A model generated the notes under the pieces. It did no database searches. It had not been told where the DNA came from and saw only the letters and a program-made list of their open reading frames with translations. Below are positions 27,801-64,000 of a stretch of DNA of 64,000 nt, piece after piece (within the stretch, counting starts at the first letter, position 1; every line of letters begins with the position of its first letter). Origin of the DNA: Xylographa opegraphella (lineage: Eukaryota); the NCBI GenBank assembly GCA_022813865.1, contig JALDZX010000003.1:496001-560000 (forward strand), written 5' to 3'. The translations under genes were made by a program, and so were the position numbers.

Positions 27801-28736
27801 TAGTAGAGTTCTCTTGTGTAATAGATTCTGAAAATCCCGATGTTTCTGCACTTGCAAGGCTAACCTGATCTTGATCCCCATTTGTATTAACTACCTTTTC
27901 ACTTCGTAGTTTCGTGACTTCATCCCAGGCTTCCCTGGCCCTTTTTTCTGCTTCATCTAGCTTTTGCTTGAATGTGGCTCGTTCTGTTGTCACCCGCTTA
28001 AGCTCGTCGAGCACCATATCACCCTTTAGATTTAATTGGTTGAGATACTCTACAAACGCGCTGGGGTCATTGATAGATGTAAGAGGAGTGTTCTCTCTAA
28101 GAGTATTCTCAAATGGTTCGATGGCAGTCACACGAGCATGAGCGATACGATATGACCGCAATAGCTCTAGTGCCCAATTAGCTAGACGGCTGTTGAATAG
28201 ATCAGTCATAGAATACCTTGGTATCTGGATTCGAGCCTCTCAAGCTTGCGCAGCTTAACCCGAACCTCTGAAGGTAATTCCAAGGCCGCTACTTGTGAAA
28301 CCTTTTCAGAGCCTCTGTCCTCCTCGGGCTGCCGCTCCCCATCCGGGGCAGCGGACTTCTCGGCCACCGCTTCGCCGGACTGACTTTCGCCATCTTTCAC
28401 ATGCACCGGCCTGGGCGTCCCAGCCCTGCTTATTACATCTTCATCCTCTATAACAAACTCCGGTTCAAATTCCTTCGGATCGGGTCCTTTCTCCGGAATA
28501 TCACCGGTTTTACTGTCACCCGGCCTGGCACGAGCAGACCGAACCGCAGGGGACGAAGTTCTCGAGCGAGAGCTTGGCCTTCGAGCAACCGAGTTAGACC
28601 TGGCAGGTAATTGCTGCGCGTTGCGCTGACGAGCTTGCTCCTCCGCTATACGAGAGTCAATGGCTCCCTTCAAACGCTGCATTGTGGTAAGCGTTGTAGA
28701 AGCACGGCTTTACTCCAAGCATCTTACCTGGAACAT
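24865..28736 (-). CDS. IMH1: GRIP-domain golgin (IMH1-like coiled-coil protein); 5 exons
   Basis: MFQ|RLKGAIDSRIAEEQAR start, a long coiled coil, and C-terminal GRIP DYVYLKNVLLQFLEQKD...LIPVLGMLLHF..KDEQKW. Confidence 0.88.
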
Positions 28737-36453: not shown

Positions 36454-38111
36454 ATGGTTGTAAATGATCAGCCAAGCAGCACACTCCGATACAATGAACG
36501 CCCTGTTTACACTACCTCCAATGGTTGCCCTGTGAGTGTCGAACCAAAGAAGCATGGTCTGCCGATTAATAGTTAGATAGGTACAAGACCCAGAGTCCTC
36601 TCAGAGGATAGGCCAAAATGGTCCTCTCCTACTTCAAGACTTCCATCTGCTTGACCTGCTGGCGCATTTCGATCGTGAACGTATACCTGAGCGGGTCGTC
36701 CATGCCAAGGGCGCCGGTGCATATGGAGAGTTTGAGGTTACTCATGATATCAGTGATCTGGTATGCTCCTTCATATCTGGAGAAGGTAAAAAATGCTAAG
36801 CTTCATTAGACGTCTACAGACATGCTCAATGGTGTGGGCAAGAAGACACAATGTGTAGCTCGATTCTCAACTGTGGGTGGTGAGAAAGGCTCCGCAGACA
36901 GTGCTCGCGATCCTCGAGGATTTTCAGTCAAGTTCTACACTGAAGAAGGTAACTGGGACTGGGTTTTCAACAATACTCCAGTCTTCTTCCTTCGAGACCC
37001 GACAAAGTTTCCTTTATTCATTCACACCCAAAAGCGCAACCCGCAGACCAATCTCAAGGATGCCACCATGTTTTGGGACTACCTATCCACTCATCAAGAA
37101 TCTGCTCACCAAGTCATGCATCTGTTCTCTGACCGCGGTACCCCTTACTCCTACCGGCACATGAACGGCTACTCAGGCCACACTTACAAATTCACAAAGC
37201 CTGACGGAACTTTCAATTACATCCAAATTCACTGCAAATCCGATCAGGGCAACAGAACCTTCACAGATGCAGAGGCCGGTAAGATGGCCTCCGAGAACCC
37301 AGACTGGCACACTCAGGATCTCTTCAATTCTATCCAAAACGGAGAATATCCTTCGTGGACCTGTTATGTCCAGGTACTGAGTCCAGAGCAAGCCGAGAAG
37401 TTTCGCTGGAACATATTCGACTTGACAAAAGTTTGGCCCCAGGGCGAGGTTCCGCTTCGGCCCTTCGGAAAGTTCATGCTCAATCGGAACCACGAGAACT
37501 ATTTCGCAGAAATTGAGCAGCTGGCTTTCTCGCCATCTCACTTAGTTCCTGGTGTTGAGCCTACTGCAGACCCAGTCCTGCAGTCTCGTCTGTTTTCGTA
37601 TCCTGACACCCAACGTCACCGTCTTGGTGTCAACTACCAACAAATCCCGGTCAATGCTCCTCTTCGAGCATTTAATCCCTATCTCCGGGACGGCATCATG
37701 GCTGTCAATGGAAACTACGGGGCCAACCCCAACTACCCATCAACATACCGCAACCTTTCCTACAAGCCCATTAAACCATCACAGGAACACGAAAAGTGGG
37801 CCGGAGCCGCTGTTGCTCAACAAATCCCGGTCACCGACGAGGACTTTATTCAGCCGAATAAGCTCTGGGAAGTCCTCGCACGATATCCAAATGGGCAGGA
37901 GAATTTCGTGAGTAACGTTGCTGGACACCTCTGCGCTGCAAAAGAACCCACCCGGAAGCGGACGTATGGGATGTTCCACCGCATCAACAAGGATCTGGGC
38001 ACCCGTATCGAAAAGATGACCAAGGAGCGAGCAGACCCACCAGCGAGCCAAGCTGAGGGTAATGCCAAAGCCCGCTTTTCCGAGACTGCTGTCTCCCAAG
38101 CACATCTGTAA
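36454..38111 (+). CDS. Small-subunit monofunctional catalase, probably peroxisomal; ~4 exons
   Basis: [40 protein letters not shown] and RLFSYPDT heme-ligand motif. The C-terminal AHL is PTS1-like. Confidence 0.95.
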
Positions 38112-38682
38112 GTGGAGTGTACGTTGTGATACATTGTATTGATTGAAGATGCATTATGAGAACGAAGTGAGCATATATTGAACGATCTACCCATAATCAC
38201 TTAGACGCATTGTTTTATCGCCTTGCATACCTTACTCCCCGTGTTTGTTAGCTTGCGAAAATCTTCAACAGCAAGCGACATGGATGACCGCCTGGCAGGC
38301 ACGAACAGAATTTATTTATTATTAAACTGGAGAACAATATGGTCTGGCTAGTTAGAGTATAAACATACCTACGCATCACCTCCAGTTCATGACTCACACT
38401 ATTACCGACTCATTCGTAAACGTACATGATTGAGTAACCGGAACGCATGTGGTCCATCAATCATGTCGATCCTCTACGGTATGCCCTTCTAGTCCCTTAC
38501 GGTCAACTGAATATTCCTTGGATACAATACGTGCAATACGAATATTATATTCACAATAACGCTGGACCTCTCGGTCCGCAGCGGTACTATCATTGTATCT
38601 CCCGACCAAATACTATGCAGTCGGAATCTGTGCAATGGTAGTTGTCCCGCCAAGCCCATAAATATTTTAGCTCCAGAACATT

Positions 38683-39563
38683 TCAGTGCCCACTCCTAGA
38701 ATTATACCTCGCCTTTCCGAACGAGAATGGGACATAGCGGTACTTGATCATATGCTGGATCTGTCTCCGCACTTTTCATCTTGTTAACATTTCTTCCGGC
38801 AAATGTGCACCTGCCATACTATGTGCAAGAGGACTCTGCTTTGGCGATCGAAGTCACTAGGCGGGGAAACTTACTTGTTAATGTGAACAGAATAATCCAA
38901 TATACCACCAATACCGGCCAGAACACCGGAACGTTGAAAAGCTCCGACCATGTGCATGCAAAAGCGATAGTGATGGCACGGGTGGCGCTGTGCCAGAATT
39001 TGAATTCAGGCAAGCGGCGGATAAAAGGGCGAAACTCCTCGTCCCGCGTAGTTGGTAGGGGTGATTTCATGGAGTCGCCGTCTTCGAGGCCCTCATCTTG
39101 TGAGAGGGAAGGGTCGAATTTCGGTTGTAGAAATGCGAGGAAGAGGTTGAGGAGGTAAATACCTAAGGAGTAGCAAACTGGTAGCTGTGTAAGCAAAATC
39201 CGATCAATGGAGAGGCTCCAATTAGGATGAAGCAGCACATTCAGGTCAAAAACGCGTAGACAAATGGTCAAACAGGGGCTGTAACAACAAGATTGGAAGA
39301 ATCATAGAGGAGATCCATACCGATGTACCAGCCCTCGGAGAGCACTATGCGGAGGAGGAAGACAAGGAGGAGTGCGCCGGTGCCTATCCAGCGGTACGTG
39401 ACATATGGCGTAGACTTATCGAGGTAGCTTTGGTAGGCCTGAAAGAAGCAGTCAGCCTATTTGAGAGCTTTACTTGCTAGGAAGATAGACCTACCCTCGA
39501 GACGCGGCTGGTCTGCGCCGTCACAGCTGAGAAAGGAGTCGCTTCAGGCTCTGGGGCGTCCAT
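38683..39563 (-). CDS. RER1: Protein retrieval receptor RER1; 4 exons
   Basis: YQSYLDKSTPYVTYRW, YLLNLFLAFLQPKFDPSL, EFRPFIRRLPEFKFW and IQHMIKYRYVPF. Confidence 0.96.
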
Positions 39564-39842
39564 GGTGGTAACCTGACGAGCGCAAGGCGCTACAGCTTAA
39601 TGGATTACAGTTTTGTGACTGCCTTTCTTACAATACTTTTTGTCTATGGCGCGTGCCGCATGTGATGAAATGAGCATGAATGAAAGACTGATATCTCAGA
39701 ATCTGTTGCTTGCTGGCACTTATCCATCGGACAAATTTCGGGCGCTAGAGTAGCGCCCTCGTGGTTTTGGGCTTAGCGTTCTTTTGCGGAGATCTGGATT
39801 GAGAGGGAGCTTCAGTAACAATTTGTTGACAGTGCTTCAATC

Positions 39843-40789
39843 ATGATCTTACTACCCTTGGTGCGGCCATTGACCCACAAGTCAGCAATTCTGTCGGTGA
39901 CCCGTTGTTCGCGAAGATACTCTTCGCAGTCCATGCCCACTTATGAGTATCTATTAGTATCGATTCCGAAGCCTGGTGTTGGTCTAAGTATGCCAACCTA
40001 AGATAGATTCGACTTGATTTTGCAGATTCACTAATACTAATACATTAGTCATTCATAGTCACTCTCAATCGTCCTAAAGCTCTAAACGCTTTGTCGTCCG
40101 CTGTCTTCGTCGACCTTAACGATGCGCTCCGCAAGTTCGATGCGGACAAGGAAATTGGTGCCATGGTCATCACTGGCAACGAGAAAGCCTTTGCAGCTGG
40201 TGCAGATATTAAGGAGATGAAGGACTTGACATTTTCGAAAGCTTTTACAGAAGACTTTATTGCACCTTGGTCATTACAGACATCACAAATCAAAAAACCA
40301 ATCATCAGCGCTGTTAATGGTCATGCTCTTGGCGGTGGCTGTGAACTCGCGATGATGGCAGATATCATGTACTGCAGCGCCACTGCGAACTTTGGACAGC
40401 CCGAGATCAAGCTTGGAATCATTCCCGGAGCCGGCGGATCTCAGCGCTTGGCAAAAGCTATCGGCAAGAGCAAGGCAATGGAGTTGATATTGACGGGGAA
40501 GACTTTCAGCGGGAAAGAAGCTGCTGATTGGGGTCTGGCAGCCCGGGTCTTTGAAAACGCCCAGGAATGTGTTGAGGGCGCCATTGCTACGGCAGCCACT
40601 ATTGCGGGATACTCTAAAGTGGCGGTAAAAGCAGCTAAGGAGGTGGTCAACAAAAGCCAAGAGCTGGGTGTCAGAGAAGGAGTCGAGTACGAAAGAAGAG
40701 TGTTCCATGGCCTCTTCGGAAGTAAGGATCAGAAGATAGGTATGACTGCTTTTGCATCGAAGCAGAAGCCACAGTGGACACATGAATAG
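39843..40789 (+). CDS. Mitochondrial short-chain enoyl-CoA hydratase (crotonase); 2 exons
   Basis: Presequence, TLNRPKALNAL, AFAAGADIKEM, ALGGGCELAM and FGQPEIKLGIIPGAGGSQRL. Confidence 0.95.
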
Positions 40790-41391
40790 CATCAGAACTT
40801 CTGGAGTACTGAGGCCCACTATATGACAATCGTGCTATGCTTTGCGTCAGCTTCTGTATCTACATAGGATGCTTGTTCCGCTTTACAGTTCTCAGAACTG
40901 CAGCCTGCTACACCGAGCGTTGCTGATAAGATATGCAAGGAGGTCTTTGCGAGCTATCAGACACCCCGCCATCTTCCTCTTGTCAAGCAAGCTTCAGGCT
41001 TGAGCCAACCCTCTCCGTGAACAAACCTATGGCCGTTACTGTTACCTGTTACCATCTTGCAAGGCTTTCCAGAACGCCAGAAACGAATTTGTGCATAATA
41101 TTTTCTTGCTGTTCGTTCGACATCAACATTCGGATCTCCAATCAATGTTTTCATACCCTTATACTTGGCGATTTGCTTGTTCGAATTTCAGCCAGTAATC
41201 TTCGTGATGCATGTAATTCTGTATATTTTGCGAATTTGGCTTTTGACTGACCAGGCCCTGATGCTATGGCACATCGCATATTAGTAAGAAAGACTTCTTA
41301 TTTTAATTTACCTACAGATTGACCATTTCTACTCTACTTCCGAGATTAACACAATACAGTCACTCTTCGTCCAAGACTATAGGTTCCTACC

Positions 41392-42357
41392 ATGACCCCA
41401 ATCAAGAAATTAACATCACGAAAGCGGTCCGGAGCAGGCTGCCAGCACTCCTTTATCGCTACAATTCTTGCAAGTAACAACAAGAAGCTTTGTGGTAGAC
41501 TTGATGAGATCATCGAACTCCTCGAAGTGACAGCTTCCGCTGTAGCTTCAAAGAAAGAAGGCAGCAATGTGACCCAGGCAGCTGTCTCAACAACACCGCA
41601 AACAGCCACGGTAGACTGGGATAAGGTCAAAGGCTTAACCACTTCTTGCTCGCTGCAATCCGAGATTGCACCTCCAGAGGCAAACTCGCAGCCTCAGTCC
41701 CGATTTATGTGGCTATCACAAGAATTGCGAAACCAAGTCTATGAATTGGTGCTGGTGTCCTCCGGACCCATCATCGAGCCCCACAGGCAGATGAGCGAAA
41801 AACGGGACGATGCCACAACACGTATCGGGGACATCAATTCGTCCCTCGTCATGACATGCCGACTGATTTATGCGGAAGCAATGCCTGTTTTGTATGGTAC
41901 ACTCAACACCTTCCAATTTACGCATCCCACAAATATTAGATTGTTCAGTACTGCCGAGGGTCGTCGCCCTGCAGATTATATCCAGCGCGTTGCTCTCGTA
42001 CTTTCCAAACCATATCTCCAAGGATTCAAAGGACGGGCAGCTGAAGCCAAGGATTGGGTTGATTCGCTTTTCTCGATGTTCAATACGGAGAGAATGTTAC
42101 TACCGCGATTAGAGGAACTGGAATTGGATCTTACGTCATGGAAAATGCAACTTGGTGATGCATTTCCGCCCAGCTTGGTCAAAGGACTCAAGAAGAGAGG
42201 ATGGAAGGTTCGGAAGCTGGTGCTTCGTGGGCTCGAGGATCAGCCCGTTTTCAAAGAGCTCTTGGAGCAAACACTTCTCCGGACCCCGCGGGCGAGGTTG
42301 CTGACGGACGAAAATGACCAGGTGCTGGAGGTCGTTAACAGCTCTTCTTTAATTTGA
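41392..42357 (+). CDS. Hypothetical protein with a fungal F-box-like motif
   Basis: Intronless 321-aa ORF. FMWLSQELRNQVYELVL and LVMTCRLIYAEAMPVLYG match the FLxLPxELRxxIY / LLxTCRxIYxEAxxxLY pattern of fast-evolving ascomycete proteins. Confidence 0.7.
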   Translation: MTPIKKLTSRKRSGAGCQHSFIATILASNNKKLCGRLDEIIELLEVTASAVASKKEGSNVTQAAVSTTPQTATVDWDKVKGLTTSCSLQSEIAPPEANSQPQSRFMWLSQELRNQVYELVLVSSGPIIEPHRQMSEKRDDATTRIGDINSSLVMTCRLIYAEAMPVLYGTLNTFQFTHPTNIRLFSTAEGRRPADYIQRVALVLSKPYLQGFKGRAAEAKDWVDSLFSMFNTERMLLPRLEELELDLTSWKMQLGDAFPPSLVKGLKKRGWKVRKLVLRGLEDQPVFKELLEQTLLRTPRARLLTDENDQVLEVVNSSSLI

Positions 42358-43233: not shown

Positions 43234-44345
43234 TCAAAATTTGACACTGTTATCCGGAAATGCGTCGACTGGATTGATTTCAGTGCAGTGTCCTAAGTAA
43301 GGATTATCAAGGACGTATCCGGCCTGCTTCTGGGCAGCAAGCGACCATCCCCGAATATCTTTCTCGGTCCACCTCAAGAACTGATTCTCCTGAATAGAAA
43401 TCAGCGAGCAAGCTCAGTGACCCTTAAGACGGCCACGATACTCATTGATGCTGATGACTACGTGAGATTGAGCGATCGAAAACCATGGTACTGACCTCTG
43501 GCCGCAAGTATGAACGGCAATAGAAAAAGCCATGCACGGATCTACTTTGAGCCGTCGTGTTCGCTCCTCCTGCATGAACTGTCGAGCCCAGGAACAAGAA
43601 CGCTTCGCCCACGCCCATTTCGACAGCTTCGGCCTCATGTGCCTTCGGGCGCCGTGTGTCGTCCCACAAGTGAGAGCCAGGTACGACCTGATGGGGATTT
43701 CAGCGTCCGCACCGAGCAGCGTTTTGAGGCGATACCTCGGTGAGAAGTAGTCTTACCAGCGTGGCTCCATTTGCAGCTATAGTCTTGACACCAGGGACAA
43801 GCAGGCCCATGGCGACGTCGGAACCCACTCTATAAGTTGCCCCGTCCTCGGCTTTATGCGTCTGCTGCCAGATGAAGTCGTCACGATGTAAATCCTGAGC
43901 TTTGACGCCAGGGCTGATATCCAAGGTCGCCGAAGCAGAGAGAATGGCATCGGAGACCAACTCTGTTCCATTAGCATCGTTGTACGGTACCGAGACGGTG
44001 CGGAGAAAGTGGTTAATAATTCTGAGCAAGTTCGGTTGTTGTAGCCAGACCTCTCGCGCTGTTGTACTTCGACCGAAGAGCAGCGTGCATCGACTCGTCT
44101 CTCGAGGAAGAGAGCGTGATTTCCGCTGGCCAACGGTATTAGCTACGCAGAGGCGGAAGGGGATATGGGGAAAATGAAGCAATCGGATTTACATCGTTAA
44201 TGATGGCATCAATGAAGGGAGCAGCATCGGCATTGACGCGCAGAACCTCTTCTATGCTCGAAAAGCCGGTTAAAATGACACCGCCGTCTTCCTGGATGAT
44301 TTTAATTGCGGCATTTGGCTCGTCCAGGGGAACACGGCGTATCAT
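43234..44345 (-). CDS. Fe(II)/2OG dioxygenase, phytanoyl-CoA dioxygenase (PhyH) family; 4 exons
   Basis: IIQEDGGVILTGF, QDLHRDD (HxD), ANGATLV.PG, FLGSTVHAGG (distal His) and YLRPEENQFL, typical of fungal PhyH-type tailoring oxygenases. Confidence 0.88.
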
Positions 44346-46450: not shown

Positions 46451-48563
46451 ATGTCTCCTCTGCCTTGTACCACCGAGCTTCATCATGGTGCATACAAGAT
46501 TCACAGCTATGCACCGACACCCCCTCTCGAGAGCTTCGACCCTCGGACCGTAAAATATTCCAATCTTATCACTTGGTGTTTATGGTTGTCGTATACCCTC
46601 TTTCAGGTGAACCTCGCCCGGATTCTCCAGAATGAGACCCTGTATTTCATGTGGCGCATGTGGGTTTGTTTGTCGGCCGAAATATGTCTGTCGTTTCAGG
46701 GATTCGTCCTAGCTCTTAATCTGATCTTAATCCAATTTTCTGTAAACGATACCCGAAGCCGCCCATGCTATCGGTTGATCAATGAGTCGGCTCCTACAAT
46801 CGATATTCTTGTCACGTGCTGTGGAGAACCCTTGGATGTCATTGCCGACACTGTTGCAGCAGCAGCCACACAGGATTATCCTTCACAGCAGTTTCGCATC
46901 TTCATTCTGGACGATGGGCGCAGTGATCAGCTTCAAGAGGCTGTAAAGCTATGGAATAAAAAGTCTAACGATAACAACGGTCCCCAGATCCATTATTTCT
47001 CCAGGAAGCTGAGAGCAGGCATTAAATCTTATTTCAAAGCAGGAAATCTTCGCCATGGCATTGAAGAAACAAAGTCCCGAGGAGGGTCTGAATTCCTCGC
47101 ATCTCTCGATGCCGATATGCTTCCGGAGCCCGACTGGTTGCGAAGAATGGTCCCTCATTTGATCCTCGATGACGGCCTGGCTATGGCATGCCCTCCACAG
47201 GTGTTCAATCCCACGTCGATGTCCAGGAATATCTGGCTGACTCGAATTGCAGTACTACTACAACCTCCCAGATGACGACCCCTTGGGCCAGCAAACCGAT
47301 TTCCATATCTGGTTCACAATATTCGAACCGTTAAACGATCGTTTAGACGCAGCGATGTGCACAGGGACCGGTTTCGTCGTCCGCCGGAGTGCTCTCGAGC
47401 AGATCGGTGGCTGGCCTTTCGCGGAAGCCGCCGAGGATTTTATGTGTTCTACGACCTTGAACAATGCGGGTTGGAAGGTTGCGTTCGTTGGCGAAGCCTT
47501 GCAGCACGGCCTTGCCCCGGAATCCATGCACGCACACGTGAAGCAGAAACAACGCTGGGTACGGCAGCCCTCCTGTCCGCGATGGCCACAGGTAGCACAA
47601 TTGACGGTGCACAGGTCGATGGCGGTATTGAAGTGCACAAAAGGTTCGGATTTTATCTGCCCGGCTTCTCCGAAATGACTTCTCAGATGACATGGGGCCA
47701 GCGAGCCGTCGGGATCTCGATGGCCCTGCGGGAATACGCTCCAATCACGAACGTGTTATCCTTGATCCTGCTGCCGATAGCCATCGCTCCCTCCCGAAGT
47801 GACCAGGCCAGCCTCGTAGCCGAGCACCTCTCCTCCTGGTTCTGGCTGCGCGCCGTTTTCGCAGCGTCTTTCTTATGCCATAAGCTCAATGACTTCCTCC
47901 TTTACGGCCACATCGGGCTCCGCCGTCTCGCCAACCTTAGAAGCATGGATATCTGGTGCGCACCCTGTAAGTCACCTTCGAAGGAACAATCATCCCTTCA
48001 CCACTTCCAGCTCCTTTCCCTCTCCTCTCCGAAGCTCAATTCAAATACGACCCCTAACCTAACGTCATCGCCGGCTCCCAGACTCCGCCACCCGCTGCCT
48101 GCGCTCTCTCCTTCCCCCCGCCCTCAACCCCCTCGCCTTTGAGTCCACCGGCTCAGCGCTCAACCCCGTCAACGAGCGCTCGCAAACCCACCGCATTCCC
48201 CTCCCGCAGCGCCTGCTCAGTCCCGATCTGCTGCTCTACCTCCTCTACAGCGCGTACACTACCGTTCCCCTACTACTACGCCTGCGTTCCGACCTTCTGT
48301 GCCCCACAACTCCTTCCCTGGCGCCCGGCCCTGGCGCCGTCCTCGTGCTTCTCCGCTGCGTCTGGCAGGCGTCGTTGCCGCTGAGATACATGCTTGCGCC
48401 GCCGACGGTGCCGCCAAGGGAGGAGCTGCTCGAGGCGGATGGGAGGGGCGGCAGGCGGCCGAGGAAGAGGATGGGAGTCGGGGTGGAGGTGGAAACGGGA
48501 TCGCCGATCGGGTGGGTGGATCTACTGGAAGGGGTGGTGGTGGCGCTGTATTGTATCCGCTGA
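46451..48563 (+). CDS. Membrane-embedded family 2 glycosyltransferase, cellulose-synthase-like; 4 exons (~46451-47200, 47253-47558, 47615-47967, 48082-48563)
   Basis: D,D,D,QxxRW signature ILDDG, KAGNL, LDADM, AEDF and QKQRW. N- and C-terminal TM segments; the exon frames join cleanly. Confidence 0.88.
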
Positions 48564-48962
48564 AGTGGGGGTGGACCGGGGTTTGGAGGGTGTGGGTGGA
48601 GAAAGCTGAGGGAAGTAGGAAAGAGTGAAATGATGTGGGTTTGCTATGCCTTGAAAATCACTGGCCATGGATGATTACGTGTCTGTATCGCAGTGAGCGA
48701 CATATGTATTTTTGTTTTAAGATATTGAGATGGCGAGGAAAGGATGCTATGACTGAACAAAGCCGTGAAACGGCCACAAGTCGATAGACGAAAGATGTGA
48801 TATTGAAGCCAAACTGCATAAGCAACCAAGCAAAAGTCGTGAATCTCTCCACATTATCCAAAAACACGGTTCCTACACGACTCGACCGCCCCCTGTCGTT
48901 TAGTCGTTCCATCGTTTGATAAATGCTACTTCATCCCACACTCACGTCTTCTCGGCTCACAT

Positions 48963-51900
48963 TCACTGGTCCACCCCCACCCCCGCCCCTCTCCCCGGCC
49001 GCGGCAGGAAGCCAATCTCGATCAGATACTCCACATTCCGCTTCACCACACGCATCATCTCCGCCTCGCCCTCCATGTCCCACCACTTCTCCACCTCCAC
49101 CCCGACCTGGCCGCCATCCCGCTCCAGGACATGCAGCATCGGGAACAGGCCATGGGCCTCGCGCCTCTCGCCGACGCGGGCCCGCAGGCGCTCCATCCAC
49201 GCCTCGTACGGCAGCGGCTCGAGCGCGTAGCCGAACTCGTCGCTCAGCAACGCCCACACGCGGGCGAAGGGGAGGCCGTCGAGGACGCGGTCGACGTGGG
49301 GGGCTGCGGCGCCAGCGCTCGGCCAGAGAGCCGCGACAGCGCGGCGCGCTACGCGTCCGACGTCGGCGACGAACAGCCAGTGCGAGGCCTCGGTGGCGTT
49401 GTAGGCGCCGATGTCGATGCAGGCGGCGACGAGGCGCCAGAGGAAGTCGCGCGTAAGGGCGACGCCGGCGGAGGCGGTGCCAATGATGTAACCCGGCTTG
49501 AGGGTGCTGAGGCGGGTGTGCTGAAAGGCAGGGTGTGGGACGCAGGCGCGCACGAGCTGCTCGGATACCGCTTTGCTGAAGGCGTAGCCGTCGGCGGGGT
49601 GGGGGTCGCTGGCCGAAGGTCGGGGTCCAGCGGGGGATGAGGTCCCGGAGCTGGAGTGGTTGGGTTTCTGGCCGCCGGAGACGTAAACAAACGCGGATAT
49701 AGTGGGCGAGAGCGCGGCGGTGCGCAGCAGCTCGAGGGTGGGCGAGACATTGAGTGGTTTGAGAGTTTCGTATGCGGAGCTGTAATGCACGCGGGCGCCG
49801 TTATGAATGATAGCGTGTATGCAGTGACTGTTCGGACTGCCAACACCACGGAGAAGTGATAGTTGCTGGGTGTTGAGGCCTAGGTCGGATTTTGTGAAGT
49901 CGCCCTTCCAGACTTTGATTCTGGTGCGGAAGGTATCTTGCCACCAGCCACTTTTGACAGCTGCATCTACGATACGTCGAAAGCCAATGGGCTCTGTAAA
50001 ACATCGCACGAGGGCAAATGCGTGAACGTTCGGTCTTTCAATCAGATGCTGTAGAATCGCAGAACCGAGGTAGCCGGAGGCGCCTGTGAGAAAGACATTC
50101 TGTATCGGTATCTTTTTTTGCAAGCCGGTATTCGGACTTTGAGCCTTGATGTCTCTAAACAATCCCTCGCTCAGATGTTCGACCTCCTGGCGTAAATCAA
50201 CCTTTACAGTCTCGTTAAAGCACATCCATGGTTGATCTGCATGATCGACCAGGTGTGCCAAGTCCCTAATGCTGACCTGTGGACTCAGTAGTACATCCAT
50301 AGGAACCTTCACGCCGTGTTCTTTCTGCAGAAACATTGACAAGGAGATGATCTGAATGGAATCTATTCCGGCCGACTGGAGCTTGAAATCGTGCTTTGCA
50401 AGCATTTCCCGCTTCACAACATCGTTGAAAGCCACAAGTTCTGCCACCTTGAGGCTCAGCTCGTTTGCTGTGACTTCTGTGGCATCCAGCTTGGAAGTCT
50501 TGAGATCAAGCATCGTAGTATAAGCTATCTTGGAAGGTCTCGATTCCATGTTCACAAGCCATTCGTTGATGGATTTCCGATCAATTTTCAGCGAGGGAAC
50601 GAACGGCATCCTTTCAATCACGAGACACGCTGTGGGAATCATGTACCCTGGTAAACTCTGCCCGAGGTGCTCCCATAGGTCTTCGATGGATAGAGATTGA
50701 TCCGGAGCCAGGGAAATAGGCTCATGCAAAATCCTCGATGGATTGGACTCCGAGTTCTGCATCTGTACTACAGCAACTAGCTCTTCAGCAAAGCACCCTT
50801 GTTTGGGTCGGATCACGATCGATTTCGCAATTCCTGGAATCCGCCTAACATGGTGTTCTATCTCACCGGGCTCGATTCGTTGTCCCCGAAGTTTGATCTG
50901 ACTATCTTTTCTTCCTACAAAATCGTACGAGCCGTCGAATGAGCTAGTGTTGATTCTGAGGAGATCTCCTGTGAGATAAAACCGTTGGCACTTCAAACGC
51001 AGTTCACGCGCCCACGAAAGATGCTCGAGAAAGGATGACCGGGTCTTGGCTTCATCATTCAGATATCCGCGTGCCAAACTTGGTCCTGCCACTACTAACT
51101 CGCCCACAGCACCGATTGGAACAAGGCGCTGCGGATCATCTGGATCCACCAGCCAACATAAAGAGTTGTGTAATGTATATCCGACGGTTTCTGGGAGAGT
51201 CTGGCTTGGATGCATATGCAACATCAAGCAAATACCAACCTCGGCAGGCCCATAGATTTGGATAAGCGAGACTTTCGTCGCCCATCTCTCAATGTGATCT
51301 TGCGGTAGAGCCTCACCGCCAATAGCGAGTGTTCGTAGTGACGGGACCGTGGAGGGCTCAATCAGCCCTGCGAAAGACGGTGTTAAAATCGCAAAGTCGG
51401 CTTTCATACTATTGATTACACCAACTATGTTGCTGCGGCGGTCTTCTTCTGACGGTATGCATATGACTCCACCAAAAATTAACGTTGTGAAAATATCTAT
51501 GATTGCTACATCGAATGTGTGAGCAGCGAACTGTAGAACTCGTGCCCCGTGGTAACCCATTGCCTCCCCGTGCGTTATGGCATGGGTGCAGATGGCGCCA
51601 TGCTCATGGATCATTCCTTTCGGTTTTCCAGTTGAGCCAGACGTAAACAAAACAAATATAGGATCGTGGGGAGTAGTGTCAATGGAAGTAAAATCATGTG
51701 CCTTGTGAGATTGAAGTTTGTTGACCGTTGTGGCTGAAATTGTCACAACACGTTTTACCAAGCCAACGAGAGTTGATGCGAACATGTCAGAGGTAACAAT
51801 CACAGTTGCTTGAAGACTGTTCAAGATCTCTTCGATCCGTGACCTTGGATGTGCAGGATCAAGAGGAACGAAAGCACCTCCTGCCTTCAAGATTGCTAGT

Positions 51901-53063
51901 GTGGCAATGACGGTCCAAAGGCTTTTCTCGTACATGAATGGTACAAACATTCCAGGGACCACGCCAGCTTGTATCAAGTGCTTTGCAGCGATCGATGAAA
52001 ATTGGTTCAATTGGGTATAGGTCAAAGAGCCGTCCCACGCACAGATAGCCTCGGAGTCTGGTATAGCCCGAATAGTTGCTTCGACAAGATGATGCATGCA
52101 GCTCATCTGAGCGTACGGATCCTTGGGATTCCATGATATCATTCTTTGCTTATCTTCCTCGCTGACTGAATCAAGCTGGCCGACTGTGCATTCATTTTCA
52201 AAGACTAAGCCGCTCATGATCTTCCGGAATGTACTGGCCACAGCGTGGGCATATGGTTTGGAGATTGCTGGCCACTTATAGCCGATTGTAACATCGATCA
52301 ATGATTGAGTCGCATTGTAATTCAATATGAGATCGAACTGCTGAGATAAAGATTAGCCGAAGCAGTAAAAGTGATAACGAACGAGACTCGTCAGTGATTT
52401 TTTCATGTGCCTTCGTATGTAAGTTTGCATATTCGACGAGATCAATATAGACGATATAGTGCTGTGTTACTGATAATCGATTTTGGCCAAATTAGGACAA
52501 ATATTACAAAGCAATTCGGTGAATTTCACGATAACTGACTTCAGAAAAGCGAGCTGATTTACCGATTGAGAACTCGTAAGTCGCTCGTGACTTGTATATG
52601 GCCCCTCCGTAGTTGATGAGGGAAAGCTCAACAAGTTTACTGCCGTGTTGATATTTGACGCCTTCAAGGTTGGCTCAGTAGATCTCCAAGAGGCAGCTAC
52701 ACGAATATCTTTCAACCGACACTCGTCTGTACACTGAAATAGGACCACCGAGACCCCGGTGCCTTCACTAAGCGGTACTCCATTGGCACTTCTTTGGTCG
52801 GAATAGAGAGCCTGATCTCCAGAAATAACGGCGAATGCAACAGAGCCATTTCGCAAGTAGGTCCGCAGCAAAAGAGCCCAGGCGGCCAGCACCAAATCTT
52901 TCGATGACTCGAAGCCCTTCCCCAAAGCGGGCAAGGTTGCACCGTCAGGGAATGCAGAGACAACGTCGTAAGTGCGATCCTCGATGTTTCTCTGCGAAGA
53001 GATGGGGAAGCGGCAGTGCTGAAGGCTGAGTTCCTCTGAAAGGTCCTCTGGAGCTGAGCCCAT
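48963..53063 (-). CDS. NRPS-like enzyme: degenerate N-terminal C-domain fragment, then A-T-R (thioester reductase)
   Basis: A-domain cores LTYTQL, LKAGGAFVPLD, FTSGSTGKPKG, FDV, YGPAE, GELVVAGPSLARGYL, YLTGD and GRKDSQIKLRGQRIE. T motif GIDS. R domain FLTGASGYLG and YAFSK. The upstream exon has LAAWALLLRTY. Splicing at ~52340-52545 is uncertain. Confidence 0.92.
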
Positions 53064-54010: not shown

Positions 54011-55128
54011 ATGGCTCATTCCACGCTTGACCTCTCACTGTTCACCCATGGCGACGAAGCGGAACGCCACCAACTTGCTTTGAGCCTCGTCGAGAGCCTG
54101 TCTCGAGATGGCTTCGTAGTTCTTGTAAACCACGGCATCTCAGACCTCACCGTGGAAAAGCTGTTTGAATGGGTATGTGGTGGATCATTTTGCCTTTGCA
54201 GAAGCTAAGTCGGCTAACTTCAAGCCTTGTCGTGAAACGCAGAGCAAGTCTTTCTTCCGGTTGAAGTTGGATGACAAGGCTTCCATCGCACACCATCCTG
54301 GCCCTAATCCTCAACGAGGTTGGAGTGGGGTCGGTGCCGAGAACAGTTCTGCGCTGTATCGAAAAGGACTGCTGAAGTCCACAACTGTGGAGGACCTCAA
54401 AGATGCGAGGGTAAGTACGAAGCAAAACCACCACACAATGGGGTGTATTGACGTAAGAGGAACACTTCGATATCGGATCGACGGCAGACCTTCAGTACCC
54501 CAACAAATGGCCCGACGAGAAGGAGCTTCCCGGCTTCCGTCACCAGATCGAGGCTGCATTCGAGGCGTTGGAAGCAGTAAGCGCGCACATCATGAAAGCC
54601 CTTGAGGTCGCCTTTGGGTTGCCGAAGGGCGCCTTCCTAGACAAGATGACCCACACAGCCAACGCGAGTGAGATGCGACTAAACCATTATCCGGCCATCG
54701 ACATCGAGGAAATCAGAGCCGGCGGCGTGAGTCGAATCTGGCCTCATTTCGACCTGGGTGTGATCACTCTTCTTTTCCAAGACCGAGTCGGTGGGCTCGA
54801 GTTTGAGGACCGCAAGAACCGTGGAACATTCACACGTCTCGAGTGCTGTGGCTCATCTGAGATGGTTGTCAATGTGAGCGAGACACTGCAACGGTGGACC
54901 AACGATGTTCTGGCGGCAGGCCTGCACCGAGTCAACATCCCCCGGCAGATGGAGGACAAGGAGACGGCCGTGCTTCCCGAAAGATACTCAATCGCTTACT
55001 TCTGTAAGGCCGACCGCGATGCCTCCGTGGGGCCTTTGCAGCAATTCGTGCATGAAGGTGCGGATCCAGTTTATCAGGACATGCCGGCCATTGAGTATCA
55101 TCGGCAGAGGTTGCAATCTGCGTACTAG
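54011..55128 (+). CDS. Fe(II)/2OG oxygenase, IPNS/DIOX family; 3 exons
   Basis: LDLSLF..GFVVLVNHGI (DIOX_N), PQRGWS, RLNHYP, HFD, TLLFQD..GGLE, GLHRV and RYS. Confidence 0.9.
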
Positions 55129-55492
55129 CGTTCACGAGCGTGCTCGAACTCGGAATGATAAAGCTGATTGTTCGAGGCTTCGTTCCATACCACCTTGACC
55201 GTGATCGATAGTAATACTTCGTAGCTATCAAGAAACATGCGGGACTTTTCACACGAGTGAACGTGGTTGTTGAGTGCTACGCAGTAAATCGACCCCTGCC
55301 CGATGACCCAATGACGTACTACGTACTCCGTAGAGATAGTCAAGTGCCTCCGATTGCAGCCCAAACCCCGCCATGATTCCGATTCATGGGGGCCATTTCC
55401 CAAGGACTATTTACTATGTATATGCCCCTGAGTCTTGACCACCCACCCACAACCCCTTATTATTCAGAACTCCCCCAATTCAAGCACCCACT

Positions 55493-56544
55493 ATGTCAAA
55501 CCAACCCCCCACCAGCCCCACCAACCCCCCACCCCCACCCATCTCCCTTGCCATCATCGGCTGCGGTGCGCCGTGCCCCGCCCAATTCAGACCGGCCCCC
55601 TAATTGACCACCCCATAACAGGCAAACTGGGCACCTCCCTGCTGCTCGGCCTCCTCGGCCCCGCCCACGACCCTATCCCCACCCTCACCATCGCCGACAT
55701 ATTCATTACCGCATCCGTATCCAGCACGTCTCGCCTCCGACAAGCCCTCCCTTCCCGAGCCCCCTCTCACCCCTCGATCTCCATTCTCCCGCTCACAGCC
55801 AACGGCTTCGCTGCCCAAGTCGCCGACGTCGTGATCCTTGCCTGCCCACCTTCCACCCACAGCTCCGTTCTCCAGGATCCGGCCGTACGCCAGGGCCTGC
55901 TGGACCACGGGCGGCAGGGGACGACCAAAAGCAAGGTGCTGATCAGCCTGCTGGGCGGGGTACGTATCGCCCAGCTGGAGCGTAGCCTGTACACGCCCCT
56001 GAATGCCGCCCTGCCGGCCCCCTCGGGAACCGGGCGCGCTCGCTGTGCCATCGTGCGTGCGGTGCCGAACATCGCCGCGCGGCAGCAGCAGTCGGTGACG
56101 ATCCTCTCAACGACGACCACCAATGATGACAATAACAACGCCGACGACCCAAATGCTATCGTGGCGGCCTTGTTCGCACGCGTGGGCGTCGTCCGCTGTC
56201 TGCCGGAAGCGCAGCTGGCGCGAGCGTCGGCGCTCGCGGCATCCGGGGTGGCATTCTACGCACATCTGATGAAGGCGGCAGCGAAGGGGGTCGAAGGGGG
56301 TGAGGACGGCTTGGCGGCGGACGACGCCATATGGGTGGCGGCACACGCGGCACGAGGCGCAGCGGCACTGGTGCTGGCGGGGGACACGCCGGAGGGAGTG
56401 GTGCGAGCGGTGGCGACGGAGAAGGGGAGCACGGCGGCGGGGTTGAAGGTGCTGGCGCAGATGGGGGCAGGGGAGGCGCTGCGGGCGGCCGTTGCGGAGT
56501 GTGGGCGGGTGACGAACGGGTTGGGTGGTGGGAGGGAGAAATAA
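55493..56544 (+). CDS. Pyrroline-5-carboxylate reductase-like protein (divergent); intron 55566-55621
   Basis: LAIIGCG|KLG Rossmann motif, ADVVILAC, LISLLGGV, IVRAVPN, ALAASG and VATEKGSTAAGL correspond to P5CR motifs. Confidence 0.8.
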
Positions 56545-56712
56545 GTGGAAATGAACATGATTGTAAGATTGAGTGCGAATTCTGAGGCTCCTGCGGTACC
56601 TTTGCCTCCTTATTATAGAGACAATGATGAAAAAATGAGTGGAGTTTTGGACGCATAGTTTGTAGATTTGATTCTAATCCGCAGGGCGATTCTGTAGTTC
56701 TGGCGATGTTTT

Positions 56713-58166
56713 TTATTTCGTCGCATCCAGGACAACTTTGATGACTTCGCGTCGTTCGAACATGGTGTACCCTTTCGGCGCCTCGCTCAGCGGCATTACA
56801 TTTTCGGTCATAAATTCCAGAAGGTGCTGCTTCTGCACAAACAGGCGAACAGACTCTGCGAAAACTGATCGCACGGGGCAGCGACCCATCTGCAGGCGAA
56901 GATTCTTAGAGTACGCTATCGTAGAAAATCAGTTCTTCGGTTCTAGCGTTATAGCAGCGGGGTGGTGATTGTAGAGCATGGACGAGAACTCTGAAGCAGG
57001 AGGATAGGATCAATTCGCGGGATCACGCTTACCTTCTGTCAGCGTCCACGGAGTATCTTCGCTGTGTACACCCGCACTGACTAGAACACCGCCGGGCCTC
57101 AGGAGATCAAAGCCGGTCCGCAGCGCGTCCTTGCGGCCCACCAGCTCCATGACTACGTCTGCGCCCCTGCCTTGTGTAGCCTGAAATATCCGCTCAGCCA
57201 CATTGTCTGATCCGGCGCTTGTGTTCAGTGGGATGGCACCTAGGGCCTGTGCTTTAGCAAGGCGGGCGGGCACGCTGTCGATTGCGTAGAGATGCTGAGG
57301 ACTATAGGTGGAGGCAGTGGTTATAGCGCACAGTCCCACGGGGCCACAGCCTACGACCACGGCCGTGATACCTGCAGGAGGGAAAGAAAGTCGAAGAAGT
57401 GAGAAAGCAGAGCTGGCAGCGAAGTACTGGCAAGATCAAACTCAGTATCCCAGATCACAACCTGTCAAAATGGTATGGCTGACGAGGAATGGGCGTGTGA
57501 ACAGATGGGAAATCAGCTGACCACGAGCGAGAAAGCAACGAAGAGTTACTCACTCCTGTTGGGAAGATATCAGCCATTAGAACAAGGCTTTCGGCACTGA
57601 GCCCCGCGGGAGCCTTGAAGACGGTAGTATCCGCGAGCGGAACTCGTACATATTCCGCTTGGGCCCCTGGCAGTTGGGGCGAGCCAAACACGAGGCATTC
57701 TGTACACCGACTTGAAAGGTTTGCTCGACAATAATGGCAGACGCCGCTGTGGCAAATATCAAAAGGAATGCCACCGTAGGTAGAATAGCACCATGGGCGT
57801 GCAGGGGTCAAGGGCAAAGTAGAAAGCCATACCAGCTAACAGTAAAGGGGCTTACAACAAGATCTCCCAACTCCAAACCTTCGACGTCGTCGCCCTTCTC
57901 AACCACAGTGCCGCAGAACTCATGACCCATGATGGTGCCCTCAGGACAGGCTTCATACCCCCGGAGCAGATGGAGATCACTGTGGAGTGAGTATCAACAG
58001 CAATACTCATTTATGTCATATGTTTTATCACCAACCTTCCACACAGTGCTGTGTACCGCACTCGTAGCACGACGTCTTTTGTACTCTGTACATGTGGGAC
58101 CGGGCGTTTTTCCACGGCTACCTTTCCTGGACCGTGGAATATTACGGCGTTCATCGTGTTTTCCAT
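56713..58166 (-). CDS. Zn-dependent medium-chain dehydrogenase (FDH-like MDR); 5 exons
   Basis: TALCG|SDLH, MGHEF, the structural-Zn motif CGVCHYC...SSRC, QAEYVRVP, ADIFPTG|YFAA and VGCGPVG. Confidence 0.9.
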
Positions 58167-60727: not shown

Positions 60728-62095
60728 TCATTCATGCTTGGTCTCATCATTGTCTCTCATAAGCGCCTCCGCCTTGAGTTGAAATTCGCGGAAAAGCTCG
60801 ATGGCCTAGAGTTTTTTATCAGGAACGCACGCCTTTACATAAAGTAAGAGTGATTGTATACCTGTTTGGTCTTGACTTGCCCCTTGCCGCTGTCTCTGTT
60901 GGCAAATGCTTCTCGGTACTTCTCTTCGTCGTCCATGAAGCTTGTGCGCTGCATGCTTTGCGCACTGTAGATTTTATTGTTGAACAGCGACCGCTCCGCT
61001 ACCATTTTTTCAAGCTCTTTGGTCTCTGACAGGGCCCGCAGGAGCGACGGAGCAATCGTGAAGGCGGCCACACCGGCAAGTTGCATGATTTCATCGACGG
61101 AGATGACACTGCAGGCCTTCACTCGAGTAGGGTACGAGTATTGCTCAAAGTATTGCTGCGCATCGACACATAAGGCTAAAATTGGATCTGTGTCCCGATA
61201 TCTGCGTAATTGAGCTTCCTGAATACTGAAAGGTTGCCACTTCATCAACTTACGTTTCGTCGAAATGGACCCTGAGCTCGTGCACGAACGGCGAGATAGA
61301 GATACAGCCTACTTCGGCCGCGAGCATTGCTTGCTCAATAGTGAATAACGTCGTTGCTAGAGTTTTAATACCCAGCAATTTCAATTTGCGGCAGGCCTGA
61401 AGACCCTCCCAGGTAGACGCGACCTTGATGCAAAGTCTGGATACATCGAAATTGGGTTCGATTCGGCGGCAAAGACTATAAATACCTGCGGTTTACGGAG
61501 ATACTATCAGTCTCATTATGACGATCGTGCGCCTTGAAGCAACGTACGTTGACCATTCTCGACGATTTTGATGGTCGAATCGGAATACACCGGATTCGCC
61601 ATGACAAGTATGTTGCCGGTAATCAGGGATGCAATCGTCAATGACAGGCTAACCATCTGCGAGATCCTTCAGCGAATGTTTACCGATGTCGATCCGAAAT
61701 GGGCGGGGCAAGAACACACGGAGATCTCCATGGCCAGCTCCTCGAAAGTCACATTGGCGTACTCTGACTGGAACTTTCGTCCAAGAGCAACGGAACTTCT
61801 CAGTAAAGCGGCGCGTTGAGGGTTGAGAAGTTCGTAGTAAGCATCGGCCTGGGTGGCGTCAACGACGAATTTGGGATTGAAGGAGACCAGGTACCTGATT
61901 AGAAGTGCAATCGACAAACGGCCCGAACTCAGTAGCAACTGATGATACGCGTCTGTCAGCGCTCGACTTTGTTTATGCTTGAGGCGAAAACCACATCGTA
62001 CTTTGAATGTTCAGGCTATCACAGTCCACCTGAGTTTTCGAGCGGAGATATTCCAAAAGGACGACGGGAGACGTTGAATCTGACAAGGAGCCCAT
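60728..62095 (-). CDS. Transaldolase-family protein (divergent paralogue); ~7 exons
   Basis: The spliced product has VDCD, DCTSNQ, CIKVASTWEG (Schiff-base Lys), TTLFTIEQA, ISPFV and FTIAPSLL. Confidence 0.82.
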
Positions 62096-64000
62096 GATGA
62101 ATCAAGAGATATCTGACGATGAATATGAAGTTCGACAAGTGACGATTGGAGAAGGGAGTGTGGATACCAGGCAGCGGGTAATATTTATCCCAATGCGGCG
62201 ACACTCTTATCGAGCCGTAAGCCGGCCGTCGTCCAAGGGATTTGAAAAGGCAGTTCTGGCCGCAGTTCTGGCCACTTGGGGTAGAAAGTCCATTGACCTG
62301 GACCTCTGTCTCTGGACCAAACACGCGCAGCCGTAAGAACCTGACCAGATGTGTATACAACGACTGAGCTTGAAATAGCCATGGCCTACGATGTAAAATT
62401 ACGGTAACACCGTAGTCGATACAGACCGAAGGCATAGTAAAGATCTCCAAGGTTTCGGCATTACTTGAAGATAATATCAAGGTATATAGTGTCTTATCTC
62501 GCAGCGAGATTATGTACTGCGATCCGTAAGCGCTAAGCCATTGGGAAGAATAGTAGCGAACGCGGGAGCGAGCCGAGAGGCGACAGGGATTATTAAGCTT
62601 TGGAGCTTGGATCTCGAAGCGGAAGTGATCGGCACGGTCCGTACCAGGACTGCAGCCAAAGCCCAAGGTTACATCTTACGGTACTGCAGATATTACTTGT
62701 GGTTAGTGGGAAATCGATATCGAATTGTGCACACTTCTGCATAGATCTTTTAGTACTGCAGAATCTATGCAACGACGGTCGATCCAAGCGAAGTAGACTG
62801 GAAATTACCCACGCTCAACCGTGGTTCACATTGTCGAGGTCGATGCTTCCCCGAACGCTAGAAAGTAAGTTTCAAAATGCGGGAGCGGAAGCGGGGATAT
62901 CGGGCAGGGGTCGAAAAATACCGGGCTACTTGTTTAGCTCCCTTACTCTTAGCTTCATCGTATTAGCGCGATACATGATTTTCAAAACTGCAAAATATCC
63001 ACACCTCCAGCATCACCACTACACCACCTTGAATGCAGCACAACGCCTTCGCTTTGCCGTCTTTTTCGCCGCTGAAAGTCCGCATGCCTATGGTGGACTG
63101 CGGCACCGTTCTGCAGGATGTGCTGGCCCGTGGCTCTGGCATGCACGCAAAGCCGCACCGATCGGATTCCCAGGTTTACGTTGTTGCTTGCATCATGCAT
63201 CGATCCGTACTCGTTCAGCTCCAGTGTCGATGCACACTGCCGTGTATCCGTTACACCATACGGAGCAACACATAGCGATTGTGGTGGTCGTATTCGTTCG
63301 CCCCACACATCGCCCAGGGGGCCACTTCTTGCGATTCTGAGCAATTCAGCCGGTTGTCTATCGTTCAAGGAGATATGATTGGCACATCCTTGTGTGATGA
63401 GGAAAAGTCGAGTGATCAGCTCAGCGTGATGCATTTTGACTTCGTCTGGCGTTGATCATGAGCCCGACCCAATGCATCCACACAGCAAGAAGGGCCGAAT
63501 CGCAATTGACTTCGCACTCGATAATTATGCAACAGAGTATTTTACTGTCCAGAACTGATAGTGGTATTTTGGTATGGTTTTCATCACTGGACGGACCATG
63601 TATCTCTCTTTGATCAAGCTCATTTCAAAGAGAACAGCACAGTAATAGATCAAAGATACCAAACCTGCGAGTGACTTCAAACAAGGTCAACCGTTTCCGC
63701 AAGTTTGAGAAGCTCTTCCAAAGTCGAAAACTCAAGTTTACTGAAGTACTTGTCTCGCTGCTCAAGAGTTCTCTCCTGAGGGCACGCTGAAGCTCCAGCA
63801 ATGGTCCACTGCTCCAAATGAGCCAATCCAAGTCCAATGGTATCCTCGTTGTGGATGCATGCTGTGATCGAATCTTCGATTTTTTTTACTGATCTATAGG
63901 ATTTCTTCAGCGGCCGACCTGTTGCCTAATGTCAAACAAATGCCTCGGGTCAACATCAAAGGCTGGATTTCTAACCGTGAAAACTCTCCATGATCTCGAC

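Follow-up and report, generated by a model that had tools for sequence, protein, structure and literature searches.

Three adjacent genes of the lichen fungus Xylographa opegraphella raise the question of which amino acid they prepare, and for which enzyme. They lie in a fungal, intron-containing stretch of 64,000 nucleotides (assembly GCA_022813865.1, contig JALDZX010000003.1, positions 496,001 to 560,000 of the forward strand), referred to here as the window, and encode a 2-oxoglutarate (2OG) oxygenase, a pyrroline-5-carboxylate (P5C) reductase-like protein (P5CR) and a zinc-dependent medium-chain dehydrogenase (MDR). The original prediction regarded all three as one cassette that supplies a cyclic imino acid to a neighbouring single-module enzyme with adenylation, thiolation and reductase domains (A-T-R). 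Sequence and context support the oxygenase and P5CR as a pair feeding the A-T-R, whereas the dehydrogenase does not appear to be part of the route. The pair probably constitutes a UcsF/UcsG-type supply of methyl-substituted proline.

Splice sites were inferred from the sequence and its homologues rather than from RNA, a search of sequencing runs having listed no RNA run with this sequence; for the oxygenase, MDR and P5CR genes they agree with the homologues. Each of the three gives one open spliced frame at the predicted location, and the outer bounds of the prediction, 54011 and 58166, are the start codons of the oxygenase and MDR genes. The three neighbouring families had been named correctly, with intact frames and matching Pfam families, as had the single-module partner, in which the A, T and R domains follow a short C-domain remnant. 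The A-T-R and oxygenase genes are divergent, head to head. NCBI proteins named for X. opegraphella match the A-T-R, and a transaldolase further along the window, with full identity.

48963..53063, - strand: single-module nonribosomal peptide synthetase (NRPS)-like enzyme, C-domain remnant plus A, T and R domains, cluster core; intron position uncertain
54011-54172, 54243-54410, 54460-55128, + strand: UcsF-like Fe/2OG oxygenase, 332 amino acids; Pfam DIOX_N and 2OG-FeII_Oxy
55493-55565, 55622-56544, + strand: P5C-reductase-like imine reductase, 331 amino acids; P5CR_dimer at 51.6 bits against a cut-off of 25
58166 to 56713, five exons, - strand: two-zinc medium-chain dehydrogenase, 355 amino acids; ADH_N and ADH_zinc_N

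The oxygenase is an isopenicillin N synthase (IPNS)-type Fe/2OG enzyme with intact HxD...H and RxS motifs. Among solved structures, UcsF matches it best (E 1e-64), ahead of thymine dioxygenase (5e-27), and a full-length orthologue ranks the solved relatives in the same order, with UcsF best. Exon 3 shares 116 identities with UcsF over 222 residues, counted by eye (~52%). This proximity appears to place the enzyme apart from the LdoA/GriE type, which hydroxylates leucine once, and no chain named leucine hydroxylase occurs among the solved matches of either this oxygenase or the PhyH-type 2OG oxygenase of the same locus. In the cited passages of PMC8233208, UcsF converts L-Ile to 4-methyl-P5C, while DetxE, 42% identical to UcsF, alone in vitro converts L-Ile to 5-hydroxy-Ile and 4-methyl-P5C, and P5CRs complete the route. 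EcdK also oxidises twice, and LdoA and GriE depend on NosE or GriF, according to passages of PMC5676206. The precedents drawn on by the original prediction agree with the sources: UcsF/UcsG with PMC8233208, the phqC/phqD annotation with a figure legend, and LdoA/NosE/NosF with the passages cited. As a side observation, the nearest oxygenase paralogue in the genome (35–38%; L082:4493-7116, G000 contig C220) lies beside radical S-adenosylmethionine (SAM) and amino-acid-permease-like genes, possibly a second small amino-acid cluster. The radical-SAM gene presumably resembles lysine 2,3-aminomutase; the Pfam family Radical_SAM scores below its cut-off.

The P5CR-like gene is the only extra copy found beside the housekeeping P5CR elsewhere in the genome, to which its product is 34.5% identical. 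In the alignment, hydroxyl residues are kept at the ProC positions 231, 235 and 236, which bind the proline carboxylate according to passages of PMC12899673. The clade to which the protein belongs differs at two other binding-site positions, Met119 being replaced by Val or Ile and Gly173 by Ala (Val and Ala in the window protein). Retention of the carboxylate loop together with these changes fits a substituted pyrroline acid as the substrate. A role as a bicyclic-iminium reductase was ruled out because the carboxylate-binding loop is kept.

The A-T-R has relatives at 46–73% identity in lichen fungi, Xylaria, Hymenoscyphus, Calycina and Phlyctema (the best 120 of 689 matches). All 120 of these homologues have Asp235, the carrier Ser, and the Tyr and Lys of the R domain. 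The A domain has a conserved aliphatic pocket, whose signature is identical in 43 of the 120; in a protein atlas, the domain falls in generic families only. Identity with a peramine-like lichen cluster was ruled out, since that cluster is reported without A1 and R domains.

Co-location in other genomes was judged from exactly equal contig sizes, from locus tags or accessions and from one assembled contig, with no chance rate computed. Among the matches listed, 40 of 120 for the oxygenase share a contig with 40 of 120 for the A-T-R (39 of 86 on contigs of at least 10 kb). Thirteen of the 22 named oxygenase matches listed have an A-T-R partner on their contig, with consecutive tags or accessions in eight cases, one gene between in one, two genes between in another and the same contig only in three. 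Seven of the ten best P5CR relatives (20 looked up, the best of 150 listed) share a contig with an A-T-R or oxygenase match. The accession order in Phlyctema is oxygenase, P5CR, one further gene and A-T-R, and in Circinaria the tags of the A-T-R, P5CR and a transaldolase are 3247, 3249 and 3252, the same spacing as here, by tags only. Oxygenase and P5CR-like genes travel with the A-T-R in lichen fungi, Leotiomycetes and Xylaria. The grouping exceeds chance, since in other fungi, too, both genes adjoin an A-T-R of this family, and the A-T-R, oxygenase and P5CR genes are therefore the core of the cluster. A metagenome scan with an A-T-R alignment, whose motifs are generic, returned at least 78 loci at no more than 42% identity, none with homologues of other cluster genes. 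Separately, Toensbergia leucococca has two A-T-R/oxygenase pairs (P0128/P0400 and P0042/P0402), one of which shares 90% clusters with a Lepraria neglecta pair, pointing to recent transfer or assembly contamination.

The features of a UcsF/UcsG cassette are thus present together: an oxygenase closest to UcsF, a dedicated, extra P5CR with the carboxylate loop, and linkage of both to an A-domain enzyme. Supply of 3-methylproline is therefore the best reading. From the observed genes, families, motifs, extra copies and co-location, we infer every substrate and product as follows. The oxygenase would carry out two oxidations at the terminal carbon of an aliphatic amino acid, for which L-isoleucine is the likeliest candidate. 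The resulting semialdehyde would cyclise to 4-methyl-pyrroline-5-carboxylate, which the P5C reductase of the cluster would convert to 3-methylproline. The A-T-R would activate 3-methylproline and release the amino aldehyde 3-methylprolinal, and other cluster genes would turn this aldehyde into a small N-heterocyclic alkaloid, which would then be exported. As far as the cited passages describe them, UcsF/UcsG (UCS1025A), DetxE with a P5CR (destruxins) and PhqC/PhqD (paraherquamide), which provide 3-methylproline from Ile, share the oxygenase type, the P5CR-like neighbour and an A-domain enzyme with the window. They differ in that the partner here is a stand-alone A-T-R instead of a polyketide synthase (PKS)-NRPS or multimodular NRPS, and in the extra tailoring genes present here.

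Several observations weigh against this assignment. An identity of ~52% does not by itself reveal the substrate of the oxygenase, and the aliphatic pocket of the A domain, judged by its residues, fits Ile, Val or Leu equally well. UcsG is uncharacterised in the cited passages of PMC8233208. Nine of the 22 named oxygenase matches lack an A-T-R partner among the best 120 of 689, and none of the second ten P5CR relatives shares a contig with an A-T-R or oxygenase match. Shared promoter motifs of 7–9 nucleotides in seven intergenic stretches were no commoner than in 100 random controls.

The dehydrogenase had been proposed as a NosE-like middle step. Its motifs form a full two-zinc set, comprising Cys42, His63 and Asp152, which we take to be the catalytic ligands, and four Cys, presumably structural. 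Among solved structures it is closest to generic alcohol dehydrogenases, and none of the curated families attains its cut-off. The protein is 51% identical (exon 4) to a paralogue among non-biosynthetic genes elsewhere in the genome. If the first product of the oxygenase were a secondary alcohol, a three-enzyme route would be required, in which the oxygenase only hydroxylates, the MDR oxidises the alcohol in the role of NosE or GriF, and the P5CR reduces the imine. The MDR gene does adjoin the oxygenase and P5CR genes, and the tag gaps in Circinaria (two genes between P5CR and transaldolase) and Phlyctema (one between P5CR and A-T-R) could hold an MDR; GriE, moreover, performs no double oxidation and needs GriF in passages of PMC5676206. 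The window oxygenase is, however, UcsF-like, and, by the cited accounts, UcsF, DetxE and EcdK need no dehydrogenase to arrive at the semialdehyde. Together with the non-biosynthetic setting of the close paralogue, this argues against the proposed middle step and renders the three-enzyme route quite improbable. Since this oxygenase class needs no dehydrogenase, a NosE role for the MDR is possible but not favoured, and its most likely substrate is an alcohol or aldehyde further down the pathway, outside the methylproline route. The 4-methylproline systems LdoA/NosE/NosF and GriE/GriF/GriH, which start from Leu, resemble the window, in the passages cited, by the side-by-side arrangement of a 2OG oxygenase, a Zn-dehydrogenase and an imine reductase; they differ from it in that the window oxygenase is of the UcsF kind, needing no dehydrogenase. 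An MDR-like contig from another sequencing run was not counted as synteny because it may carry the housekeeping paralogue.

The oxygenase might instead act on another substrate, by hydroxylating proline as the GloF/HtyE/Ppz type does, by converting Leu or Lys to 4-methylproline or pipecolate, or by serving a late alkaloid step. 2OG oxygenases of the GloF/HtyE/Ppz/UcsF kind differ in substrate, and position 239 of the A domain varies among the 120 listed homologues (Ile in 59, Met in 40 and Phe in 15), both of which speak for this alternative. It is also consistent with the P5CR-like genes that passages of PMC8403587 describe in some swainsonine-type clusters. Nevertheless, among solved structures the oxygenase is nearest to the Ile enzyme UcsF, with a higher identity than that between DetxE and UcsF (42%), and plain proline hydroxylation needs no dedicated P5CR, so another substrate appears unlikely.

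The supply of 3-methylproline accounts for only part of the locus. As a unit, the trio is too narrow; it belongs to a run of ten biosynthetic-looking genes that extends from ~43.5 kb to just beyond the end of the window. The original prediction, limited to the trio, omitted the greater part of the cluster around it, and it is this part that bears on the product. The gene order is PhyH oxygenase, Methyltransf_24 methyltransferase, family 2 glycosyltransferase (GT2), A-T-R, oxygenase, P5CR, MDR, major facilitator superfamily (MFS) transporter, transaldolase-like and NmrA-like, with the methyltransferase and GT2 genes also divergent, head to head. Besides the four genes given above, the cluster comprises the following.

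43496..44345, - strand: PhyH-type Fe/2OG oxygenase, SwnH1-like; open spliced frame of 238 amino acids, last exon outside the model; Pfam PhyH at 40 bits
44873..45634, - strand: class I SAM methyltransferase (Methyltransf_24), single copy in the genome
46451..48563, + strand: membrane GT2 glycosyltransferase of the cellulose-synthase type (D,D,D,QxxRW), intact model of 629 amino acids
58597..60193, - strand: MFS transporter, intact model
60728..62095, - strand: divergent second transaldolase, intact model; Schiff-base Lys kept, both phosphate-binding Arg lost
63677..64000, - strand: 3' part of an NmrA/isoflavone-reductase-like gene, intact model of 312 amino acids with its start at L079:808; candidate cluster member

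Open frames are present in all nine complete models and in that of the PhyH gene, which lacks the last exon. With catalytic residues invariant and the core kept across fungal classes as well, it is highly improbable that the cluster is silent or decaying, or that the trio serves amino-acid catabolism. In another organism, methyltransferase, A-T-R and oxygenase genes occur together on a contig of 17.9 kb, the oxygenase inverted, and a second contig of another organism carries a PhyH gene beside a methyltransferase; the membership of the methyltransferase and PhyH genes has one outside witness. The sequencing run of the 17.9-kb contig, compared at 80% likeness, gave no cover of the P5CR, MDR, MFS and transaldolase genes, which carries no weight for or against their membership. 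The 17.9-kb contig has no room for a GT2 gene between methyltransferase and A-T-R, and the GT2 is therefore probably a variable member. The left-hand neighbours of the cluster are a DUF7730 gene and one for an enoyl-CoA hydratase. The ten-gene cluster is uncharacterised, and the stand-alone A-T-R as partner of the oxygenase-P5CR pair is what is new. The literature search found no description of the cluster or of a route combining an A-T-R with a transaldolase, although subscription journals were thinly covered and supplementary cluster tables (e.g., for Xanthoria) may list it.

The fate of the aldehyde depends largely on how the transaldolase is interpreted. This protein is the only extra copy found beside the housekeeping transaldolase in the genome. 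It keeps Asp17, Asn35, Lys132, Thr156, Ser176, Phe178 and Ser226, while Glu96 is replaced by Met, Arg181 by Glu (R181E) and Arg228 by Ile (R228I), positions that we take to follow E. coli TalB numbering. It therefore lacks the Glu96, Arg181 and Arg228 of a housekeeping enzyme. Both phosphate-site arginines are kept in the housekeeping transaldolase of the genome and in 11 bacterial loci, and Glu181 is common to all six members found of the divergent family. The second-best solved match is an engineered TalB variant, in which the changed residues are seen in the alignment; this match is presumably 3KOF, TalB F178Y/R181E. The engineered dihydroxyacetone aldolase TalB F178Y/R181E, which takes non-phosphorylated acceptors, resembles the window protein in Glu181 and differs from it at three positions, as the window protein, a putative aldolase, keeps Phe178 and has Met96 and Ile228. 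According to passages of PMC3962226, R181E raises the affinity for non-phosphorylated acceptors. Two prokaryote scans with the transaldolase gave nothing in one case and, in the other, 11 ordinary transaldolases and one contig of 526 bp. That low-coverage contig, in an Acetobacter assembly (L084:255-458), encodes a fungal-type divergent transaldolase at 66% and is probably contamination.

These changes raise the possibility, still a doubtful one, that the product of the cluster is a polyhydroxylated methyl-pyrrolizidine iminosugar, formed by a counterpart of the swainsonine route that does without a PKS. A phosphate-blind transaldolase would place a dihydroxyacetone (three-carbon ketol) unit on 3-methylprolinal, the ring nitrogen would close on the new ketone, and the isoflavone-reductase-like enzyme would reduce the iminium. 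The SwnH1-like oxygenase, MDR, methyltransferase and GT2 would then decorate the hyacinthacine-type core. The predicted skeleton is 7-methyl-3-hydroxymethyl-pyrrolizidine-1,2-diol, which falls in the hyacinthacine-type class of compounds. Pochonicine is a fungal compound of the same general class, but the position of its methyl group would call for another precursor. For the PhyH enzyme, SwnH1 is the best solved relative with both exons tested, at modest scores (E 8.6e-7 and 6.8e-9). The NmrA-like gene weakly matches isoflavone reductase homologues (E 7e-4; one exon scanned without a Pfam match), and its product is a candidate iminium reductase by this similarity. In passages of bioRxiv 2024.09.26.615303, SwnH1 and SwnH2 hydroxylate and desaturate an indolizidine, and SwnN and SwnR reduce iminium ions. 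As described in the passages cited, the swainsonine (SWN) cluster is similar in placing a cyclic imino acid (predicted here) on an A-T unit, in reductive release, in the SwnH1-related PhyH oxygenase and in a candidate imine reductase. The differences are that the window cluster has only the A-T-R and no SwnK-type NRPS-PKS hybrid, one PhyH oxygenase instead of two, and a precursor that would arise through the oxygenase and P5CR rather than SwnA; the transaldolase is the sole visible candidate here for chain extension.

The iminosugar proposal also faces objections. In a weak search, only six transaldolase matches were found among 476 candidates, three of them on an A-T-R contig (X. opegraphella, X. 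trunciseda and Circinaria). These three fungi are related to each other, and plain synteny may explain the linkage. The family is broad, with Ascomycota clusters of 92, 59 and 439 members in the protein atlas. Without Glu96 or Tyr178, moreover, the enzyme has no clear acid-base catalyst as judged by its residues. Unprotected amino aldehydes dimerise readily. A-T-R clusters known from passages of PMC8403587 yield piperazines. The aldehyde might instead dimerise and be reduced to a tricyclic dipyrrolo-piperazine, with the transaldolase as a bystander. Such an outcome would be in keeping with herquline, a piperazine of A-T-R clusters in the same passages, with the nearby NmrA-like reductase and with the linkage of the transaldolase to the cluster in only three genomes. 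The single-module A-T-R and the NmrA-like reductase and methyltransferase nearby are likenesses to LnaA- and herquline-type clusters, as far as these are described in the passages cited. The window nevertheless has a predicted cyclic aliphatic precursor, no cytochrome P450 in the cluster as modelled, and two 2OG oxygenases, a transaldolase and a GT2. An NmrA-like reductase is the usual partner in piperazine clusters, and it and a methyltransferase are among the partner genes of the LnaA/herquline type; the known piperazine cases, however, use primary amino aldehydes from aromatic residues. The bystander explanation also leaves unexplained the phosphate-site changes in the one transaldolase found in the genome besides the housekeeping copy, and we consider it unlikely. 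For the aldehyde as such, extension by the transaldolase to a polyhydroxy-pyrrolizidine is conceivable, with the odds against it; dimerisation to a piperazine and a fate other than pyrrolizidine, piperazine or amino alcohol are each open to more doubt, and reduction to an amino alcohol followed by decoration is the least expected.

If the iminosugar proposal is true, the cluster would combine reductive release from an NRPS with C–C bond formation by a natural transaldolase and define a family of glycosidase-inhibitor alkaloids in lichen fungi, whose alkaloids are little studied. Participation of the transaldolase would provide a fungal route to polyhydroxy-pyrrolizidine iminosugars and a natural aldolase acting on non-phosphorylated amino aldehydes, a change known until now from engineering. 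The oxygenase-reductase pair, in itself a known device, is here the mark of an orphan cluster family that is widespread among lichen fungi and some free-living ascomycetes. The non-lichen fungi with orthologues (Xylaria, Phlyctema, Calycina and Hymenoscyphus) should grow more easily, and the product can be sought in them.

Some further observations concern the locus itself. In the public annotation, three tags separate the A-T-R (000719) from the transaldolase (000723), compared with four genes modelled here; the oxygenase and P5CR genes, 364 bp apart on the same strand, were possibly merged, or one was missed. The oxygenase of the window is itself absent from the oxygenase matches listed. At 36810-42357, catalase-like and RER1-like genes (by eye), the enoyl-CoA hydratase and the DUF7730 gene form the probable left edge of the cluster. 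On the other side, a second MFS-like gene (by eye; two pieces scanned without a Pfam match) follows the NmrA-like gene at L079:1160-3237 and may extend the cluster. The GC content is 58–65% over the P5CR gene and the converging 3' ends of the GT2 and A-T-R genes (55001-57000 and 48001-50000), compared with ~48% elsewhere. At 25291-28239, the - strand contains an open frame of 982 codons with a strong AT skew.

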